A stretch of DNA of 64,000 nt from Myxococcota bacterium (lineage in GTDB: Bacteria; Myxococcota_A; SURF-8). The notes below the pieces were generated by a model that searched no databases, was not told where the DNA came from, and worked only from the letters and a program-made list of their open reading frames with translations. Both the position numbers and the translations under genes were made by a program. This document shows, in pieces, positions 32,034 through 58,826 of the stretch. The stretch covers positions 5,088,001-5,152,000 of the forward strand of contig OZ223209.1 of the NCBI GenBank assembly GCA_965140415.1. The letters run 5' to 3'. Every line of letters starts with the position of its first letter. Position 1 is the first letter of the stretch.

Positions 32034-32158
32034 TCATTTCTGACCATCGAGTAATCGAGATGTGCCATGGTCTCACGGAATGGAAATTCCGGGAGGCCGT
32101 GTCTAACTTATTGAAGACACACAGCCTTCCACTATCTTCGATCGCGTAAGACTATGGC
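32034..32158 (+). repeat. ~125-bp structured dispersed repeat, copy 1
   Basis: CCATCGAGTAATCGAGATGTGCCATGGTCTCACGGAATGGAAATTCCGGGAG...CACACAGCCTTCCAC.ATCTTCGATCGCGTAAG; homologous to 40018-40146 and 58603-58737. Confidence 0.9.
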
Positions 32159-40017: not shown

Positions 40018-40146
40018 AAGAATGTCTGCCACAGTCTTACGCGATCGAAGATCGTGGAAGGCTGTGTGATTTCTTGTGGTTAGACACGGTCTCCCGGAAT
40101 TTCCATTCCGTGAAACCATGGCACATCTTGATTACTCGATGGACAG
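40018..40146 (-). repeat. ~125-bp structured dispersed repeat, copy 2 (inverted)
   Basis: Reverse complement CTGTCCATCGAGTAATCAAGATGTGCCATGGTTTCACGGAATGGAAATTCCGGGAGACCGTGTCTAACC...GCCTTCCACGATCTTCGATCGCGTAAGACTGTGGCAGACATTCTT. Confidence 0.9.
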
Positions 40147-45487: not shown

Positions 45488-45797
45488 CGATCTTCTCCTT
45501 TGTTCCTGTGGCACGCCCAGTAGCGGCCCGGACCTTGTTGTAACGCCAGCGATTCTGCTTGTAAAGGGATTTTGGCAACGGAAATCACATGAAAAAAACC
45601 AACATGTTGAAATCATCGCCTTTCTTGGTGAAATAAGGTATACTAAAAAGGCGATTTTGAATACTCACGTGGAAGAAGCAGTAGGTGAATTTACGGTTGT
45701 GTAAGCAGCACTCTTCCATGTTGGGCCGTCATAAAATTACCGGGTGTGCTTTGCCGAGATCTAGGGCCGGATCTCAGCGAACATATGGGAGGATGTG

Positions 45798-48700
45798 ATG
45801 AAGGGCAGTTTTGTTTGGAAATCGTTTGTATGTTGCGTGCTGATCATCGGATGGACGGCCTCGGCTCAGGCTGTGGATGTGTGCAACACCGACGCGGATT
45901 GCGAAAGCGATCTGTATTGTACCGAAACCTGCGATCCGAGCAATCCGGAAGCAGATGCAAAAGGCTGTGTGTTGGCCGATAGCTGCGACGACAGCATCGA
46001 CTGCACCTACGATTACTGCATCGATGCTTCGATGACCTGTCAGAATCTGCCGGTCGATGCCAACTGCCAGGACGGTCAGTACTGCAACGGCGCAGAGATT
46101 TGCAGCGCGACGCTGGGTTGTATCGATGGTCCCGACCCCTGCTCGGATGCTTATGCCTGCACCGACGATTGCGACGAGGATACCGACACCTGCCCCTATA
46201 CACCCAATGATTCTCTATGCGACGACAGCAACACCTGCACCGCTCCCGATAGCTGCTCGCCCGGTTCGCCCGGCACGGATGCGGATGGCTGCCTGTTTAC
46301 TGCCGTGGAAGATGGCACGAACTGCGAACTCGATGGCGGCGGTTCGGGAGCCTGTTTAGGCGGTGAATGCTTCGATGGCTGTATTAGCGATGCCAACTGC
46401 GACGACGGCATTCCCTGCACGGAAGATCTGTGCAACCTGAATACGTTGACCTGCTACTTTGTAAACTCCGATGCAGCTTGCGATGACGATGTATTCTGTA
46501 ATGGTGCGGAAAGTTGCGAGCCGAGCAATCCCGGTGCGGATGGAAACGGCTGTGTGGCGGGAAGCGATCCCTGCGACGACGGCGCAAGCTGCACGAGCGA
46601 CTCTTGCGAGGAATCGACGGACAGTTGCACCAACACTCCCGACGATGGCGAGTGCGATAACGAAATCTTCTGCGACGGTGAAGAAACCTGCGATCCGACG
46701 AATCCGTCATCGGGTGGTGATGGTTGCGTGGCGGGAAGCAATCCCTGTCTCGATAGCTACGCCTGCACCGTCGATGAGTGCGATGAGGGCAACGATAGTT
46801 GCAGCAACACTCCCAGCGATGCTTACTGTGACAACGAACAAGCCTGCGATGGCGAAGAAACCTGCGATCCGAGCGATCCCAGTGCCGGAGTGGATGGCTG
46901 CCTGGACGGATCGTCACTGAATTGTAACGATGGAATCTCATGCACCGTCGATAGCTGTGACGATGCTTCGGGCTGCATCAATGCGCCCGATCATGCCTTC
47001 TGCGATGATTTGGACCCTTGTACAACGGACTCCTGCGATACCGTGTTGAACTGCGTGAATACACCGCTTGCAGATGGCTCACGCTGCGAAGCGCCGGAGC
47101 AGTCGCCCAAGGTCTGCCAGGACGGCGTGTGCGTGGCGGCCTGTACAACCAATCAGGATTGCGATGACGGCATCGCCTGCACCACCGATATCTGCGATGG
47201 AGAAACGCTGCTTTGCTCGCATACCCCAAACAACAATGTCTGTAACAACAGCGATCCCTGCGACGGCGTGGAAGTCTGCAACCCGGACGATCCTGGTTCC
47301 GATGGCAACGGCTGTGTGGCCGGTCAGGATCTGGATTGCGACGATGGCGTGGATTGTACAACGGACAGTTGTACTCCCGGAGTCGGTTGTTCAAACGAAG
47401 CGGACGATTCTTACTGCGACGACAACAACGTGTGCAACGGATCGGAAACCTGCGATGCCGTGCAGGGCTGCCTGGCCGGAACGCCGTTGAATTGTGCCGA
47501 TGCGTTCGATTGCACTGCGGATAGTTGCGATATGGCGTTGGGCTGTCAGCATACGCCAAACGATGCCGTTTGTGACGACCACACGTTCTGCAATGGAGTG
47601 GAAACCTGTAGCGTTTCCCTGGGTTGTGTGAATGGCACTCCCCCGAGCTGCGACGATGGCGTGGCCTGTACCGTGGATAGCTGCAATACTTCCAGCGATA
47701 GCTGCGACAACGAGCCGTCGAATACGTATTGTAACGACGATGCCTATTGCAACGGCGTGGAAACCTGTTCTCCCGAATCGCCGGGAGCCAATGCGCAGGG
47801 TTGTTTGGCGGGCACAGCACCCGATTGCAGCGACAGCATAAGCTGCACCGTCGATAGCTGCGATGAACCCAGTGATACCTGCGTGCATGAGGCGGATCAC
47901 TCCGCCTGCGATAACGGCCTGTATTGCGATGGCTATGAGACCTGCGACGAAACGCTTGGCTGCCAGGACGGCATCGCCGTGTTCTGCTCGGACGATGGTT
48001 TCTCCTGCACCCAGGAGACTTGCGACGAAGAAAGCGACAGATGTATCTCGACGCCTATCGACAGCAGGTGCAACAACAATCAATATTGCGATGGCGAAGA
48101 AACCTGTGATCCAACGAATCCGGCGCATGCCACGAATGGTTGTGTGGCGGGAGAGGACATCGATTGTGCCGACGAGTACAGTTGCACCATCGATGGTTGC
48201 GACGAGCAACTCGATAGCTGCGTACATGCGCCGGACAATAGCGTCTGCAACAACAACCTGTTCTGTGACGGCGTGGAAGTCTGTAACCCGGATGATGGCT
48301 CCGCCGATGGAAACGGGTGCGTAGAGGGCACACCGCCCGATTGCGACGACGGTATCGATTGTACGCTGGATGAATGCAACAACAACATCGGTTTCTGCGT
48401 GTATACGGGGCGAAACGAACTCTGCGACAACGGGCTGGATTGCGATGGCGCGGAAATCTGCGATACCGAATTGGGTTGCGTCGATGGCATCGCGGTGAAC
48501 TGCAATGATGATGTCGGATGTACGCGGGATAGCTGCCAGGAATCGGCCCTGGGACCGAACTGCGTAAACGAGCCCTTCGACTCGGATTGCAGCGACGGGC
48601 AGTACTGCAATGGTCAGGAAACCTGCGATCCGGTGAGGGATTGTCAGGACGGCGAGAGCATTGTCTGCACGGATGGCGTTGCCTGCACGGTGGATGAATG

Positions 48701-51700
48701 CGACGAAGAGCAGGATCAGTGCACGTATACACCCGATGACGGCTTGTGCACGGAAGATCCGGGTGTCTGCCGCACACTGGTCGGCTGCGACCCGGATGAC
48801 GGCTGCATGTTCGCCAATCGCCCGGACGGAGAAACCTGCGATGTAAATCCGGAAGAGCCGGAAATCTGTCAGAACGGAGTGTGCGTGCCCGGCTGTCAGG
48901 CGGCTGAAGACTGCGACGACGGTATCGAATGTACGCTCAATACCTGTGTGGATAACTGGTGCGTGTTCGTGCCGCAGAACGAGTTATGCCAGGATGATAG
49001 CTACTGCAATGGCGCGGAAGTCTGTAGCGCGGTGTCGGGTTGTATCGCCGGTTCGGAGCCGGACTGCGATGACGAATTGGTATGTACGCGCGATCAGTGC
49101 AACGAAGCGATCGATGGATGCGAGCACATTCCCGAAAACAGTTGGTGCAACGACGGGCTGTACTGTAACGGTGTGGAAATCTGCGATCCCCAGGACGTGG
49201 AGCACGATGAAAACGGTTGCGTGCCCGGTACGGCGATCGTGTGCGAAGATGACGGCATCGATTGCACCGAGGAAGAATGCTCCGAAGATTCCCATGCCTG
49301 CGAGCATATTGCAAACGATGAGCTCTGTTCCGACAACCAGTTCTGCACCGGCGTGGAAATCTGCCATCCGGTCGATGGCTGCCAGCCGGGAGCCTTGCCT
49401 AATTGCAGTGATGACGTGGATTGCACGGTGGACAGTTGCGATTCGCAGAGCGATAGCTGCGTACATGAGGCGAGCGATGCCTTGTGCAGCGATAATGTGT
49501 TCTGTAACGGAGTTGAAATCTGCGACGAGCAGACCGGTTGCCAGGACGGACCCGACCCAAGCTGTGAAGACGGTGTGGATTGCACCGTGGATCGCTGCGA
49601 TACGGAAAGCGACACCTGTGCCAATGAACCGGACGACAGCGCCTGTGACGATCTGGATTACTGCACCGGCGTGGAAACCTGCGATGTATCGCAAGGTTGC
49701 GTGAGCGGCACGGCGGTGACTTGTGACGACGGTTTCTCCTGTACGACCGATACCTGTAGCACGGAGCTGGCGCGTTGCGTGTATACCCCGGAAAATAGCG
49801 CCTGCGATAACGACGCGTATTGCGACGGTGTGGAAACCTGCGATCCCGAGAATCCCGGTCACGATGACAATGGCTGCGTTCCCGGTACGGATGTCGTTTG
49901 CGAAGATGCCTTTACCTGTACACAAGATCGCTGCGATGAAGACACGGATCAGTGCGCGTTCGATCCGGTAGACGCCAACTGCGCCAACGCTTTCTATTGC
50001 GATGGTGCGGAAACCTGCGATCCGCAGAATCCCGCTGCGGCGGCTGATGGCTGCGTACCGGGAACGGATCCCTGCGACGATGGCTTCGCTTGTACCGCAG
50101 ACAGTTGCGACGAACCGACGGACGTCTGCACGAATACGCCGCAGGACAGCGCCTGCGACGATACCCTGTATTGCACCGGCGCGGAGAGCTGCGACCCGCA
50201 GAATGGAAGCGCCGACGAATTCGGTTGCGTGGCGGGTACGCCGCCAGATTGCGCCGACGGCATCGCCTGCACAGTGGATGACTGCTCCAACGAATCGTCG
50301 TCTTGTACGCATACACCCGACGATTCCGCCTGCGCGGACGAGTTCTACTGCAACGGCGTTGAAATCTGCGATGCGCAGACCGGCTGTCAGGACGGCCCCG
50401 ACCCGGATTGCTCGGATGCGTTTAGCTGCACCGTGGATAGCTGCGATGAGGCGAACGATGAGTGCGTACATGAGCCGGTCAATTCCTCCTGCGATGACGG
50501 CGTATACTGCAACGGCGATGAAGTCTGCTCGACGACGCAGGGCTGTGTCACCATCCAACGCAACTGCTCCGACGGTGTGGATTGTACCGAGGATAGCTGT
50601 GTAGAGAATGAGCAGCGTTGCGAACACACGCCGCAGGATTCCGAATGCGACGACGACAATCCCTGTACCGCGCCGGATGTCTGCGATTTACAGGAAGATT
50701 GTCAGACGACCGTGTTACAAGATGGCACCACCTGTGACATCGATCCGACGAAGGTTGAAACCTGCCAGCAGGGTGAGTGCGTCCCCAACTGCGTTGAACA
50801 CATCGACTGCGACGATGGTCAGGACTGCACCACGGATACCTGCAATTCCTCCGGCGTGTGCGAGTACCAGCGCAATGATGATCTCTGCAACGAAGGACGC
50901 GCCTTCTGCGATCCGATCTACGAATGTAAGCCCTTTACCGGCTGCGTGGCGGGCGATCCGCCGGACTGCAACGATGACATCGCCTGCACCATCGATGAGT
51001 GCGATACGCAGCAGCAGGCTTGCGTACATACACCAGACGATACCGCCTGTGATGACGGCAAGGTCTGCACCGTGGACAGCTGCGATGACGTCGATGACTG
51101 CCAGCATGATCCGGTTGCGGACGATACCCCCTGCGATGTCGATCCCACCCGCGTGGAAAGCTGTCAGAACGGTCTATGCGTGGCGGATTGCCTGGAAGAT
51201 GAGGATTGCGACGACGAGCAGGAATGCACCACGGATAGCTGCTCGGCGCAAGGCGTTTGCGAATTCGAACCGGATCACGATTCGTGTAACGAAGGCTTGA
51301 CCGCCTGCGATACGCCGTATGTCTGCATTGCGTTTGAGGGCTGCGTGGAAAGCGATCCGATCGATTGCGACGACGATGAACCCTGCACCACCGATACCTG
51401 CGACGATACGCTGGGCTGTCAGTACGAGGCGCTGCCGGATGGCACCATCTGTGATGATGGCTGGGTATGCGATGCGGGCGTGTGCGTGGAAGCCTCGCTA
51501 GACGGCGACCTGGAAATGGATATCGACTTGCCACCGGATGGCGATATGGAACGCGATTCGGAAGGCGAACAACCACCGGATGGCGACGAAGATCTGGATC
51601 ATGATACAGAACTTGATATCCAGCCGGATGGCGATGCGGATGCCATTGAAGAACCGGAAAAGGATGTGGTCGTTGTCGACGGTGACGAGGAGCAAGCGGG

Positions 51701-51944
51701 CGATATCGATGCGGTTGTCGATGGCGATGAAATCCCCGCCGATAGCGATTTTACAATCGACGGCGATGAAGATGCGTCCATCGATGGCGATACGGAAAGC
51801 ACCGTGGACGGCGATGACAATGGCGATGGTGGCGGTTGCAGTTGCAACGGCTCGGCCTCGACGCCGCAGGGCTTATTGCTTATGGCATTGGCCTTACTGG
51901 CAGCCTGGATGCGTCGCCGAATGCACGGACGCTTAGGTGAATAA
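45798..51944 (+). CDS. Giant secreted Cys-rich repeat protein with DGD tract and MYXO-CTERM sorting signal
   Basis: Sec signal (ASAQA); roughly 30-35 CDDG..CT.D.C units alternating with CNG.ETCD; C-terminal GGGCSC + TM + RRR. Confidence 0.9.
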
Positions 51945-54185: not shown

Positions 54186-55979
54186 ATGCACCCCGCGTTA
54201 AAACAACAGTACACACTTATTGGGCTGCTTTTTGCTCTGCTGCTTGTTCTGCCCTCTGGTTGCGGAGACCAGAACGATTCTCAAGACAATCTGACGGATA
54301 CCGATCTCGCGGTTACAGACGGCGATTCAGAAACAGACGGCGACAACGTCGTTGCAGATGGCGATGCGGATGCGGATCGCGACAAAGACAGCGACACCGA
54401 GCAGGAAACGTCTTCGGAAGTTCGCTTTACGATTCTGCACACGAACGACGTGCACGCCCATATCGAAGAATTCGACTCCTACGGCGGCTCCTGCGACGAG
54501 GCGGAATCGCAGGCGGGGGAATGCTTTGGCGGAGTGGCGCGACACGCCACCTACATCGCAAACGTGCGCGCTCAGGCAGACGATGTGCTGCTACTGGATG
54601 CGGGTGACCGTTTTCAGGGTTCGCTGTACTACAGCCTGTATAAAGGCGAGGAAACCTACACCTTCATGAACATGCAGGCTTTCGATGCGATGGTGCTTGG
54701 CAATCACGAATTCGATAATGGCCTGGACGTGCTGGCGAGTTTCCTTGGGCATGTAAGCTTTCCCGTGATCAGCGCCAATGTCGCGTTTACGCAAAACCCG
54801 GCGATGGACGAACAGGTGCTTCCCTACGTGCTGAAAAACATTCAGGGAAGGCAGGTTGCCATTATCGGATTGACTTCCGAATCCACCCCGACCTTATCCA
54901 GTCCGGGAGACACGGTGCGCTTCGACGACCTCGTCACGTCGGCTCAGTCTGTCATCGATAGCCTGCAAACGCAGGGCGTACATATTGTCGTGTTGCTCAC
55001 CCACATCGGCTTGAATCACGACGAGCAACTCGCCACAGCGCTCTCCGACGTCGATGTCATTATCGGGGGACATTCGCACAGCCTGCTTTCCAATTCGGAT
55101 TCCGCCGATGGCGTAAGCGGTCCTTATCCGCTGATCACGCACGATGTGCAGGGCGATCCGGTGTTGATCGCCACGGTCGGGCAATACGGAGAATACGTCG
55201 GTCGCTTGAATCTGCTTTTCGACACACAGGGAAAGGTGCAGGTTGATTCCTCCAATGGCGAAGCGGTGCATATGGATGCGACGATCGCCCAGGAGCCCCG
55301 AACGTTAGCGCGTGTTACGGAAATGTCGACGGCCTTGGATTCGTATACGTCAACGGTGATCGGGCAGAATTCTGTCGAATTAAATGGCGATGCGGGCGTC
55401 TGCCGCTTTTACGAATGCACCATGGGCGATCTGGTATCCGACGCCATGCAGTGGCAAACCTCCGACGACGAGGTGGAAATCGCCGTCTTCAATGCGGGAG
55501 GCATTCGCGCCAGTATCGATCCGGGAGACATCGATTTGGCCGAAGTGTATAACGCCCTGCCCTTCGGCAATTCCATTTCCACCTTTCAACTAAGCGGGCA
55601 ATCACTGTTGAAGATGCTGGAGCATTCCGTCAGTGTGGCGGAAGATCCAGAAAACGACGGCACCGGGCGCTTTCTGCAAGTCTCCGGCCTGCGTTTGATC
55701 TGGAATCCCGCAAAGCCAGTGGGCGAGCGGCTGGAAACCGTGGAGATCGGTTCGCATGATACTGGTTTTACGCCGCTGAATGCGTCCACCCTGTATCGCA
55801 TCGCCACCAACAATTACATCCGCCAGGGCGGCGACGGCTACAATATGCTTGCCGAAGAGGCCGTCGCACCTTACGATTACGGCATGCTTATCACGGAAGC
55901 CGTTACAGCCTATGTAAGCGCCTACTCGCCCGTCACGGTACTGCTTGAAAACCGCATCCTACGAAGCGGGGAAGAGTGA
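54186..55979 (+). CDS. Bifunctional metallophosphatase/5'-nucleotidase lipoprotein with DGD tract
   Basis: Lipobox PSGC; HTNDVH, DAGD, GNHEFD, LLTHIG, GGHSH, NAGGIR, LPFGN, FLQVSG, GGDGY. Confidence 0.93.
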   Translation: MHPALKQQYTLIGLLFALLLVLPSGCGDQNDSQDNLTDTDLAVTDGDSETDGDNVVADGDADADRDKDSDTEQETSSEVRFTILHTNDVHAHIEEFDSYGGSCDEAESQAGECFGGVARHATYIANVRAQADDVLLLDAGDRFQGSLYYSLYKGEETYTFMNMQAFDAMVLGNHEFDNGLDVLASFLGHVSFPVISANVAFTQNPAMDEQVLPYVLKNIQGRQVAIIGLTSESTPTLSSPGDTVRFDDLVTSAQSVIDSLQTQGVHIVVLLTHIGLNHDEQLATALSDVDVIIGGHSHSLLSNSDSADGVSGPYPLITHDVQGDPVLIATVGQYGEYVGRLNLLFDTQGKVQVDSSNGEAVHMDATIAQEPRTLARVTEMSTALDSYTSTVIGQNSVELNGDAGVCRFYECTMGDLVSDAMQWQTSDDEVEIAVFNAGGIRASIDPGDIDLAEVYNALPFGNSISTFQLSGQSLLKMLEHSVSVAEDPENDGTGRFLQVSGLRLIWNPAKPVGERLETVEIGSHDTGFTPLNASTLYRIATNNYIRQGGDGYNMLAEEAVAPYDYGMLITEAVTAYVSAYSPVTVLLENRILRSGEE

Positions 55980-56086
55980 ATCAATTTTGATCGGGAATGA
56001 ATTCCCTTCGGTCAGACTGCTTTGAACTTGCAAAAAACGCCATAGATCGAAAAATTTGCCGACCGAATTCTATGGGTTATTAAATA

Positions 56087-57256
56087 CTAGCCTTCTCCGA
56101 TTTCTGAATCGGAATCATTCAAGTTGTCTGTTTCAATCTCTTTTGGCTCAAGCCAATCACTATCTGGTCGACATACAAGACGAGCATTACTATATGCCCA
56201 GTCAAGAGTCAAAACAGTATGCCCTAAATAGTTGCCAGAACACGTTTTTTCAACCGCTAAGGCTAGATCAACATGATTGTCATCCACTAAACATAACGGG
56301 AGTAACAACTGAAGCTTCTTTACTCGTGGATAGTATTGTGGCACTGCCGTTTTAAAGTTCCATGACACACGTTTAATTGACAATTCAACGGCGTCCTTAA
56401 CTCGGTTCATTATTCGCCGATATACTCGAGGATCATCCTCAACAGCTTTTCCTAACTCTTTTGAATATTTCTCTTTCTCATCACTATTTAAGTTTCGAGG
56501 GTCTTTCAAAGAAAAATCTCTAGGACTATTATCTTCAAGAAATTCCATTGGATATCTATCTAGCCGATCGATAATTATGTGTTTGAAATCGAGCTCGGGA
56601 TCTCCTTGGCGAACGTCGTATATAAGGTCCGTTGGTTCGTCAAAGTAGTGAGCAGATTCAGGCAATGGATTAAAGTAGCGAACCAAATCCTGCCCAGCAG
56701 CTTTTTCACCAGCAATACAAAACTCAATAATTTTCCATTGAGGTTGATCGTAAGTGTTTCTATTGAAAATAGCGTAGATTGTTTCATACCTAGAATCAAC
56801 AAGTCCGGTATTGAATGCGGCAAATTGACCGTCATCACTGTATTTAATTTTATCTTCCAACATTAACCTAGTGAAGGTTTGAAGAAGGTAACTGTATAGG
56901 ATCGGGAATGGTTTTTCAGGATCAATGCCTTGATTCTTGAACTCCCAGCGTTCATCTATCGCAATATCTTCAAGTTGTCGAATTGTATCAGGAATTTGCC
57001 CGAGATACGCCCATCCTAAAAGCTTGGAGACCTTTTTAGCTGAATTCTTAGAATTAGTGAGGTTGATCCTCGTAATCTGTTTCGCACAAGGTCCTCTTTG
57101 ATTTTCCCCAATCTCAAAATCTATAAGATCTCCTTCTTGTATCAATGAATCTTGACGATCCGTTACATCTGAAATGTGAAAAAACAAATTGCTTTCCAGC
57201 TGTTCAGAAGAAATAAAACCATATCCATCACCAAATTTTAAAATCTTACCTTGCAT
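56087..57256 (-). CDS. Cold-shock (OB) domain fused to DUF3825 domain, AT-rich gene
   Basis: N-terminal GYGFI..LFFHISD..G.RGPCA; C-terminal FNTGL.D..YE.IYA.F, TAVPQYY, LQLLLPLCL, HTVLTLDWAYSNARL..PDSDWL. Confidence 0.82.
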   Translation of the reverse strand: MQGKILKFGDGYGFISSEQLESNLFFHISDVTDRQDSLIQEGDLIDFEIGENQRGPCAKQITRINLTNSKNSAKKVSKLLGWAYLGQIPDTIRQLEDIAIDERWEFKNQGIDPEKPFPILYSYLLQTFTRLMLEDKIKYSDDGQFAAFNTGLVDSRYETIYAIFNRNTYDQPQWKIIEFCIAGEKAAGQDLVRYFNPLPESAHYFDEPTDLIYDVRQGDPELDFKHIIIDRLDRYPMEFLEDNSPRDFSLKDPRNLNSDEKEKYSKELGKAVEDDPRVYRRIMNRVKDAVELSIKRVSWNFKTAVPQYYPRVKKLQLLLPLCLVDDNHVDLALAVEKTCSGNYLGHTVLTLDWAYSNARLVCRPDSDWLEPKEIETDNLNDSDSEIGEG

Positions 57257-57316
57257 ATTATATCCTTATTTGTATTTATTGTAGCTCAACTCCACAATAC
57301 TCCTTCGGAGTAACAA

Positions 57317-57538
57317 TTACGCTTTCGAGTATAACCAGTGATTATCAGATTTCTTTCTTGATTGCAACTTGTATTTCTTTAAAGCTATAAGATGAAATTC
57401 CTTACCCATTGTCAGTTTTTCCTTTTTCGTCAGTAGTTTCCATTCCTCTCTCCCAAAAATTTCAGCTAAAAGTTTCTCTTCTCCTTGCTTCATGTCTTGA
57501 ACCCCATTAGATATTCTCTCTAATTGCATATTTGTCAT
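57317..57538 (-). CDS. Small DUF1413-like protein (73 aa), AT-rich
   Basis: GGAGA RBS; L.EIFG.EEW..L.......GK.F.......K..N...Y.K pattern. Confidence 0.6.
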   Translation of the reverse strand: MTNMQLERISNGVQDMKQGEEKLLAEIFGREEWKLLTKKEKLTMGKEFHLIALKKYKLQSRKKSDNHWLYSKA

Positions 57539-57987
57539 TTTAAAATCTCCATATTGTCTTCTCAATCTCATTGCTCAAATTCTATCGTTCGAGTCTCGCC
57601 ACTTTGGTATTTTATCTTGATCAACATAATTAGGCAAGACCAATTCAGACGACAGGACGGAAATCCGGCTCAATCGAGAGGTGCCTTGTTCGTATAATTT
57701 CTTGCTCGCTCCAGGCCACAAAATCGACTTTTTCGGGGAGACGTTTACACTTGCTGCCGGACGGCTTTTCGCCGCGATTCGGCAGATTCGGCCGCAAACG
57801 CCCGTAAACGAGCACGATCTGACCGCATTAGACACGTAAACCCACACTACAAATGACAGAAAAATCGAAATTCGAGCCACTTTGAGCCTTCATGGGCCCC
57901 TATGCATACCTAATTGAGGCATACCTTATAGATGGTACTGCTCGTTTACGGTCATCTAGTGTCGTTTTAGTGTACGTCTGCGGTCCG

Positions 57988-58530
57988 TTACTGTCCGACC
58001 TTTTCCTCGGATAGAAGATCCAACCCGTCTTTTTCCGCCAATTTGCGTATCGCCGTCTCATCGAAACGAAACAGCGTCCATTCCGATAACGGCTCGGCTC
58101 CCAGTTTGCGATACAGGCGAGTGGCATTCTCGTTCCAATTCAAAGCCGCCAGATCCAGGCGTGGGCACTCGCGTTGATAGGCAATTCGGGCGAGTTCAGT
58201 TAAGATCGCGCGCCCATAACCTCGCCCGCGCTGTTCGGGATTCAGATAAATATCTTCCAAATACAATCCCGGCTTTCCGGTAAAGGTACTGAAATTCATG
58301 AAGTAAACGGCAAAGCCGGCCGGTTTTCCATCGATCTCGGCCAATAACGCCTCGGCACTGGGATGCTCGGAAAAAAGAGCTTGTTGCAGGCTGTTTTCGG
58401 TGGCCTGCACCTGATCGGCCAGGTCTTCGAAGGCGGCAATCTCACGAATAAACTGAATAATCCTGGGCACATCGGATTCAACAGCCTTGCGCAGATGCAA
58501 TGCAGAAGAGTTAGAATGAGGGGATTTCAT
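57988..58530 (-). CDS. GNAT N-acetyltransferase (spermidine/diamine acetyltransferase-like)
   Basis: FSTFTGKPGLYLEDIY..PEQRGRGYG, WNENA..LY.KLGA. Confidence 0.9.
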   Translation of the reverse strand: MKSPHSNSSALHLRKAVESDVPRIIQFIREIAAFEDLADQVQATENSLQQALFSEHPSAEALLAEIDGKPAGFAVYFMNFSTFTGKPGLYLEDIYLNPEQRGRGYGRAILTELARIAYQRECPRLDLAALNWNENATRLYRKLGAEPLSEWTLFRFDETAIRKLAEKDGLDLLSEEKVGQ

Positions 58531-58602
58531 AAAGTTTCCTTGGCGGCACATGGTTAATGGAATTCACGCATTTTGCTTTCTGGCTAGTATAGGCACTATT
58601 AC

Positions 58603-58737
58603 TCATTTCTGTCCATCGAGTAATCGAAATGTGCCATGGTCTCACGGAATGAAAATCCTGGGAGAACGTGTATAACCTATTGATTTCACACAGCCTTCCA
58701 CGATCTTCGATCGCGTAAGTCGATGGCACACATTCTT
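58603..58737 (+). repeat. ~125-bp structured dispersed repeat, copy 3 (contains IHF consensus)
   Basis: Homologous to 32034-32158 and 40018-40146; TAACCTATTGATT (58673-58685) is the reverse complement of WATCAANNNNTTR. Confidence 0.9.
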
Positions 58738-58826
58738 GGAATCGGCGGCTAAATATAACGAATACTCCACGAAGAAAGAAGCAAGGGGGAGCCAGTGCAA
58801 AAACCAAAAACGGTAGAAAAAAAGGC

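Follow-up and report, generated by a model that had tools for sequence, protein, structure and literature searches.

A horizontally acquired CSD-DUF3825 gene without a conserved partner is a candidate RNA-directed conflict effector in a Myxococcota genome

Does an AT-rich islet that carries two adjacent genes encode a two-gene system, or does one of its genes act alone? We addressed this question in a 64,000-nt stretch of DNA from a Myxococcota bacterium (assembly GCA_965140415.1, contig OZ223209.1, positions 5,088,001 to 5,152,000 of the forward strand), hereafter the window. The islet (55980..57640, approximately 1.65 kb) contains a gene for a 73-aa DUF1413-like protein and a gene for a 389-aa protein in which a cold-shock domain (CSD) precedes a DUF3825 core. 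An earlier reading made from the sequence alone (the sequence-only reading) had proposed that the two genes form an effector-partner or toxin-antitoxin (TA) module. We found that the islet is foreign and that DUF3825 has no conserved partner at other loci. We tentatively favor, at a little less than an even chance, the view that the CSD-DUF3825 protein is a stand-alone RNA-directed conflict effector that was acquired horizontally with an unrelated gene for a small nucleic-acid-binding protein.

The larger gene (56087..57256, minus strand), identified as an open reading frame (ORF) with Pfam matches and homologs, encodes an acidic protein (isoelectric point (pI) 4.78), and a Shine-Dalgarno sequence, AAGGA, lies 6 nt 5' of its ATG. 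Residues 1-63 (57068..57256, minus strand) form the CSD (PF00313), a head predicted to bind single-stranded RNA or single-stranded DNA (ssDNA). This domain scored 45.9 bits against a Pfam cut-off of 27, kept the aromatic motifs GYGFI and LFFHIS, and has an OB-fold like that of solved cold-shock domains; a search of PDB sequences with the 389-aa protein returned cold-shock domains only. Residues 95-368 (56153..56974, minus strand) form the DUF3825 core (PF12873), delimited by Pfam, a predicted model, and conservation. The core scored 240.1 bits against a cut-off of 27 and covered positions 1-238 of the 238 in the profile. The ORF contains no stop or frameshift and keeps all 23 columns that are invariant across an 80-sequence alignment, indicating that the gene is intact and not decayed. 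The closest non-self database homolog showed 58% identity, and the same architecture is found in hundreds of metagenomic proteins at 48–58% identity. The window protein is an ordinary, full member of a named, uncharacterised family with a common architecture, set apart solely by its isolated occurrence in its lineage and by its DUF1413 neighbor.

The islet is horizontally acquired DNA. With an overall GC content of 0.40, it is the sole strongly AT-rich stretch of the window; GC per 400-nt window was 0.33–0.41 across 56000-57599, compared with 0.54–0.62 on the left and 0.43–0.52 on the right, and the 2-kb bin at 56001-58000 had a value of 0.398, the remaining 31 bins lying between 0.495 and 0.592. 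Codon use was also distinct. The shares of TTA among leucine codons, AGA among arginine codons, and ATA among isoleucine codons were 0.28, 0.28, and 0.26 in the two genes, compared with 0.08, 0.00, and 0.03 in three flanking genes, and GC at third codon positions was 0.32 and 0.36 in the two genes and 0.56–0.66 in the neighbors. DUF3825 was present in 4 of 41 related genomes and was missing from all five genomes of the same family and all four of the same order. The origin of the islet is foreign because of its GC content, its codon use, and this absence of DUF3825 from the nearest relatives searched; therefore, the abrupt AT-rich segment, the foreign codons, and the horizontal origin described in the sequence-only reading were all confirmed, as were its domain calls (CSD, DUF3825, and DUF1413) by Pfam. 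Since both genes share the foreign composition, they arrived together. The genome holds a single copy of each.

The DUF1413-like gene (57317..57538, minus strand) comes first, on the same strand as the CSD-DUF3825 gene, and a 60-nt gap separates the two. We compared this layout with 100 other DUF3825 loci with their flanks (81 groups at 90% identity or more), which comprised 80 metagenome loci from at least 537 confirmed matches, 16 viral contigs, one genome contig, and three genomes of the phylum. A tblastn search with the small protein gave 0 matches at E ≤ 1 in the 100 loci, and Pfam detected 0 DUF1413 domains at E ≤ 0.01 in 147 distinct small ORFs (up to 140 aa, within two genes on either side). 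Similarly, four annotated plasmid or phage records with DUF3825 showed no DUF1413-like neighbor. When 589 flanking ORFs of the 100 loci were clustered, no neighbor was common beyond closely related locus sets. Small same-strand ORFs lay directly upstream of DUF3825 in 32 cases; they were mutually unrelated, and most resembled translations of non-coding GC-rich DNA. A type II TA module was not supported, as the conserved adjacent pair was found at 0 of 100 loci and in 0 of 4 records, and no conserved neighbor was found in its place. The two-gene module proposed in the sequence-only reading, which had named a failure to co-occur elsewhere among the results that would count against it, was not borne out. 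Viewed from the DUF3825 side, from which co-occurrence was examined, the pair appears specific to this locus, and DUF3825 is, as far as the compared sequences indicate, a self-contained gene. The lack of a DUF1413 partner elsewhere implies that DUF3825 works without one, and the islet should not be annotated as a two-gene system in this window.

We then considered what the DUF3825 family has in common. It is large, with 896 homologs among the candidates of one search and at least 537 metagenome stretches, and the source labels available for a few members name Planctomycetota, Acidobacteriia, Rhodothermales, and Proteobacteria. The mean column identity among 34 DUF3825 proteins was 59%; few of these proteins carry source labels, which span several phyla. 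Domain architecture was examined in detail for 37 proteins, and heads were assigned for 80 members using Pfam at E ≤ 10. The most frequent head was CSD (40 members), followed by OST-HTH (26), OB_RNB (7), and S1-like (7); rarer heads were the GRF zinc finger (2), TIR (1), and S1 (1), and some members consist of the 256-aa core alone. The association of DUF3825 with OST-HTH named in the sequence-only reading is therefore real. The TIR-bearing member, P0102 (595 aa, metagenome), carries the TIR domain ahead of a complete CSD-DUF3825 and shares 51% identity with the window protein over 98% of its length. The recurrent heads all bind RNA or single-stranded nucleic acid, which argues that the core is the working part acting on such a substrate. 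Across the 80 sequences, down to 34% identity, the invariant polar residues were E102, T127, T150, H226, R234, N300, T347, Y355, and R359, and the near-invariant residues were N149, K295, R296, K302, T303, D330, Y343, R363, D365, S366, and D367. We infer that this residue pattern would suit an active site more than a scaffold.

The DUF3825 family was also found on mobile elements. On four related viral contigs, CSD-DUF3825 is antisense to the flanking genes for tail-tube, head-tail-attachment, cement, and major-capsid proteins; this antisense placement among virion genes indicates a moron position. On another viral contig, a lambda-type portal gene lies upstream of DUF3825, and the family matches PHROG 11623 (E 1.7e-31). 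Furthermore, DUF3825 lies at one end of a Streptococcus prophage, after the lysin, and a 3.1-kb plasmid of the ColE1 type carries it as its main cargo. Plasmids from Lactococcus and Geobacillus have the gene with insertion sequence (IS) elements on both sides, and the Geobacillus copy is near an abortive-infection (Abi) gene.

Metagenome and genome loci were assessed for neighbors within three genes. Gabija GajA and GajB neighbor DUF3825 at L022, and a HindIII restriction-modification pair adjoins it at L001, the locus of the closest genomic homolog. Other neighbors were AbiU/AIPR (L035), PDC-M11A (L052), SoFic (L053), PDC-S50 (L023), PDC-S73 (L113), a ThsA-like SIR2 (L095), and a CHAT protease (L049), together with HigB and HicA toxins, type II methyltransferases, integrases, IS110/IS200 transposases, and conjugation genes. 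Genes for WYL-domain regulators lie directly upstream of OST-HTH-DUF3825 with a stop/start overlap at L086:1224-2390 and L091:3658-4725, and upstream of it also at L042:110-2838 and L092:2347-3324. At L042, a WYL-WCX gene and RtcB precede DUF3825, and a relative of this RtcB is found six genes away at L089; at L068, Ro60/TROVE follows DUF3825. A defence or mobile gene occurred within three genes at 18 of the 57 non-redundant non-viral loci that have a neighbor of at least 140 aa, counted by our own labels with no background rate computed, and we do not claim enrichment from this count. The association with defence and mobile genes is thus suggestive. The defence link drawn in the sequence-only reading accordingly stands in part: DUF3825 loci elsewhere have a defence or mobile flavor; however, the islet in this window is not in a defence island.

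The predicted fold gave a further indication. When the full-length model was used for fold searches, the CSD by itself took up the result lists; therefore, the core-only model is described here (predicted local distance difference test (pLDDT) 93.7; predicted template modeling score (pTM) 0.86). It shows two successive modules, each consisting of two helices, a 3–4-strand sheet, and a helix. In a wide structural search, 31 of 50 rows were, by entry title, RelE, ParE, HigB, YoeB, YafQ, BrnT, MqsR, contact-dependent inhibition (CDI), colicin D, or Cami1 toxins, all weak matches, and both halves of the core matched such toxins, again weakly. In a second structural look, the top 21 rows were all RelE/ParE-type toxins, likewise as weak matches. 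In the model, each half has a helix-helix, 3–4-strand sheet, helix order that would correspond to that of toxins of the RelE/ParE superfamily (HigB, YoeB, BrnT, CDI, colicin D, and Cami1); the toxins aligned over nearly their whole chains (e.g., 93 of 93 residues for ParE1), and the conserved residues of DUF3825 are likewise rich in Lys, Arg, and Tyr. DUF3825 shows no sequence-profile signal for these toxins; unlike them, it has no antitoxin partner, and it consists of two tandem modules in a 295-residue domain fused to RNA-binding heads. The core is firmly without a close solved relative. That it could be a tandem RelE/ParE-like ribonuclease (RNase) is a lead from the predicted model and not a finding, and we regard it as possible and doubtful.

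Taken as a stand-alone conflict effector, the protein may work as follows. The CSD head would hold single-stranded RNA, and the DUF3825 core, most likely an enzyme, would act on the held RNA, probably by cleaving it; this core is built of two tandem modules and carries conserved Glu, His, Arg, Lys, Asn, Thr, and Tyr residues. The family would have been spread by phages, plasmids, and islands, and its role would most likely lie in conflict between mobile elements and their hosts, either in defence of the abortive-infection type or in exclusion. The small DUF1413 gene would have arrived on one fragment with it and may act as a local regulator of the cassette, although DUF3825 would not need it elsewhere. 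A more specific and more doubtful version, which we consider less probable than its failure, is that DUF3825 may constitute a widespread, so far overlooked class of single-gene effectors that target RNA in immunity or exclusion. In this version, a tandem, pseudo-dimeric RelE/ParE-like endoribonuclease with interchangeable heads (CSD, OST-HTH, S1, and GRF), sometimes with TIR, would travel as a prophage moron or as plasmid and island cargo and would be self-restrained until triggered, with no antitoxin; DUF1413 would perhaps be a lineage-specific regulator.

Several results weigh against the conflict reading and its toxin-like fold. Defence proteins evolve fast, and conservation as high as that of DUF3825 is uncommon among them. 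When the phylum was sampled evenly, 12 of 401 genomes had DUF3825, and 11 of the 12 fell in one family (11 of its 35 genomes) and had the short stand-alone form, so that DUF3825 may be vertically kept in that family. Common flanking genes surround a stand-alone DUF3825 of approximately 256 aa in three genomes of one genus of the phylum (L018, L019, and L020), namely a 925-aa UvrA-like double ABC ATPase (PADLOC mad3, 253 bits), a 540-aa protein without a family match, and a HEAT-repeat protein; this arrangement suggests that the unit may be a stable part of the chromosome in that lineage. No defence genes were found in the flanks of the islet in this genome, and at E ≤ 1 neither the small protein nor the DUF3825 region was matched by any PADLOC model. 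DUF3825 is rare in reference records, occurring in 3 of 50,697 phages and 7 of 72,556 plasmids, and the remaining loci outside the 18 had housekeeping or unclassified neighbors, many of them plain housekeeping genes. Regarding the fold, Foldseek against PDB and BFVD returned nothing at E ≤ 0.001, and the ESM Atlas returned DUF3825 clusters only. In hhalign, each core half compared with a 27-sequence ParE/RelE (ParE_toxin) alignment gave a probability of at most 1%, as did the two halves compared with each other for internal duplication, and 0 of the 80 members matched a RelE/ParE-type Pfam family at E ≤ 10.

Some of these results favor an alternative, namely that DUF3825 is an accessory factor of RNA metabolism (a chaperone, a quality-control or repair-linked factor, or a non-catalytic RNA binder) that is mobile by chance. 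The very high sequence conservation, the common flanks in the three genomes of the same genus, its presence in 11 of the 35 genomes of that family, and the many housekeeping neighbors all agree with such a role, as does the fact that the partner domains are all RNA binders and that no antitoxin-like partner is needed. The RtcB, WYL-WCX, Ro60/TROVE, and WYL neighbors (L042, L068, L086, and L091, with the RtcB relative at L089) point in the same direction. However, these links are not specific to RNA care; responses to RNA-damaging toxins typically show RtcB, Ro60, and WYL associations as well, and the RtcB and Ro60 neighbors fit either RNA damage or RNA care. The patchy distribution (12 of 401 genomes) also speaks against an accessory factor, and the prophage-moron position, the small-plasmid cargo, the TIR fusion, and the recurrent defence neighbors suit conflict genes better. 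We consider this alternative rather unlikely, and a conflict effector remains the reading that we favor.

The two-gene module fares worse. It would have the DUF1413 protein neutralise or regulate CSD-DUF3825. The 73-aa protein is basic (pI 9.70) and matched DUF1413 (PF07205) marginally, at 25.8 bits against a cut-off of 25. Its 73-aa start is favored over an 84-aa start (57571) because a GGAG sequence lies 8 nt upstream and because the alignment with its three small relatives begins at residue 1-3. Searched exhaustively with phmmer, 1.84 billion representatives yielded four relatives at E ≤ 0.001; three of them are 58–79 aa in length, score 32.5, 41.3, and 26.7 bits for DUF1413, and are singletons on short metagenome contigs. 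The small ORF is a real gene, as shown by the existence of relatives, their DUF1413 scores, and the shared 73-aa start. The fourth relative, P0124, is a 1636-aa diatom protein named arginine ADP-ribosyltransferase, in which five stretches match residues 5-52 of the 73-aa protein (E 1.4e-4); this match may reflect a repeated module or a composition effect. A scan of viral contigs found no relatives of the small protein, and a four-sequence profile of its subfamily identified no related solved chain.

A real small gene with relatives, placed first on the same strand with a 60-nt gap, sharing the foreign composition and arrival of its neighbor, and preceding a possibly RelE-like protein does resemble a type II TA layout. 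Against this stand the lack of co-occurrence (0 of 100 loci, 0 of 147 small ORFs, and 0 of 4 records) and the mutually unrelated, mostly non-coding-like character of the 32 small upstream ORFs elsewhere. In addition, most antitoxins are unlike a basic protein of pI 9.7. A module in which the DUF1413 protein controls CSD-DUF3825 is therefore improbable.

The DUF1413 family also bears on a DNA-directed alternative. In the accessible text of PMC8046974, a DUF1413 gene adjoins the cch helicase gene in SCCmec, and that of PMC7581432 describes LP1413, whose gene in SCCmec lies upstream of the one for the Cch helicase, as a small winged-helix protein that binds ssDNA; judging from gene position in these partial sources, LP1413 would be the DUF1413 protein. 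The 73-aa protein resembles LP1413 in that it is small, basic, and located on acquired DNA, and the DUF1413 match is common to it and its three relatives; it differs in that no Cch-type helicase is present at the window locus and that its subfamily is very rare (four relatives). The 73-aa protein is probably a small winged-helix nucleic-acid-binding protein. If DUF3825 itself were DNA-directed, the core would be a ParE-like poison or DNA binder acting on gyrase or ssDNA. The top structural rows were ParE toxins, CSD and GRF fingers bind ssDNA as well as RNA, and the co-transferred DUF1413 family would include an ssDNA-binding protein. However, the ParE and RelE rows were tied within 1 Z unit, there was no profile similarity to ParE, and the OST-HTH and S1 heads point to RNA (PMC2848206, in its accessible text). 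We regard a DNA-directed core as very improbable.

A reading of the islet as a type V (Se72-like) retron with a cold-shock effector, either as a remnant or in variant form, was effectively refuted, as no reverse transcriptase is present at the locus, the only two RVT_1 genes of the genome being more than 800 kb away. The CSD does match the retron Se72 effector best in NCBIfam and CSD_V best in PADLOC (the sole match in PADLOC-DB 2.0, on the CSD head, E 1e-8), and a perfect inverted repeat lies upstream (57802-57951); nevertheless, the Se72 score of 34.2 bits falls far under the equivalog cut-off of 82 and is nearly tied with CspE (32.5 bits; cut-off 120), the repeat region has no Rfam match and an RNA fold z of only -1.79, and, whereas residues 1-63 are a cold-shock domain like the Se72 effector and CspA-family proteins, the CSD here forms just the N-terminal head of a longer polypeptide.

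We also assessed the intergenic gap and the surroundings of the islet. The hairpin TACTCC-TTC-GGAGTA noted in the sequence-only reading (57298..57312, exact match, 6-bp stem and 3-nt loop) exists within the 60-nt gap; however, it is not significant, since the 86-nt intergenic RNA had a fold z of -0.74 and 48 of 200 shuffles were equally stable. It has no T-run and was not among the terminator-like sites. A role as terminator or regulator was rejected because its stability is not above chance, and the hairpin is probably non-functional. A promoter-like site, TTGCCT-17-TAAAAT (57609..57637, minus strand), lies upstream of the small gene and matches the consensus at 9 of 12 positions, consensus match being its sole basis; eight such sites were found in the region compared with 4.9 ± 2.4 expected, a weak excess.

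An 18,676-nt contig of run X1 matched 54500-58715 of the window with 0 differences and bridged both islet junctions; run X1 is possibly from the same sample as the genome, so this bridging is not independent support. The runs listed for the stretch were two DNA runs from a single study, with no RNA run among them. No tRNA and no Rfam match were found at the islet, no direct or inverted boundary repeats at its edges, and no integrase or transposase among the scanned neighbors in the window. The neighboring genes encode a 5'-nucleotidase, GNAT, a MarR regulator, a methyltransferase, an Lcl_C repeat protein, and an EEP phosphatase. The 5'-nucleotidase, on the left, has an ortholog in the nearest genome (57% identity); within 9 kb of this ortholog, no other window gene was found, synteny was otherwise lost, and no uninterrupted site was seen.

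Three other elements were observed in the window. A perfect 13-nt inverted repeat (57802-57814 and 57939-57951, 124 nt apart) lies in the 410 nt that separate the small gene from the GNAT gene. A dispersed repeat of approximately 150 bp lies between the GNAT and MarR genes (58597-58750), with copies near 32034-32158 and 40018-40146; the genome has at least 40 copies at 83–90% identity, contig depth at the repeat was very high in runs X1 and X2, and many contigs ended there. It looks like a miniature inverted-repeat transposable element (MITE)- or repetitive extragenic palindromic (REP)-like element. A 2049-aa ORF (45795-51944, plus strand), which had no Pfam match at E ≤ 1e-4, lies upstream of the Lcl_C repeat protein.

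A published parallel is the group of bacterial proteins combining OST-HTH with an LK-nuclease (DUF88/NYN). The accessible part of PMC2848206, which deals with DUF88/LK-nuclease as the core associated with OST-HTH, describes a similar plan: a stand-alone protein with an RNA-binding head (OST-HTH, and sometimes an S1 or cold-shock OB-fold) and a predicted RNA-processing core, with no conserved neighborhood. As far as that source allows the comparison, the cores are unrelated, DUF3825 not being a PIN/NYN-type nuclease, and in DUF3825 proteins the head is N-terminal and the core C-terminal. The statement in the sequence-only reading that DUF3825 had been described as putatively enzymatic could not be traced; our literature search found no paper naming DUF3825 or PF12873.

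DUF3825 is thus a large, strongly conserved, cross-phylum family with no mention in the searchable literature, and the question that it raises is now narrowed. The value of this locus lies in a sharpened hypothesis and in the nine invariant polar residues, and not in the cassette as such. If the weak yet recurring hint of an RNase-toxin fold is wrong, the core has a fold without a close solved relative and would be worth solving anyway; if the hint is true, DUF3825 would be a new single-gene RNA-targeting system in bacterial immunity.

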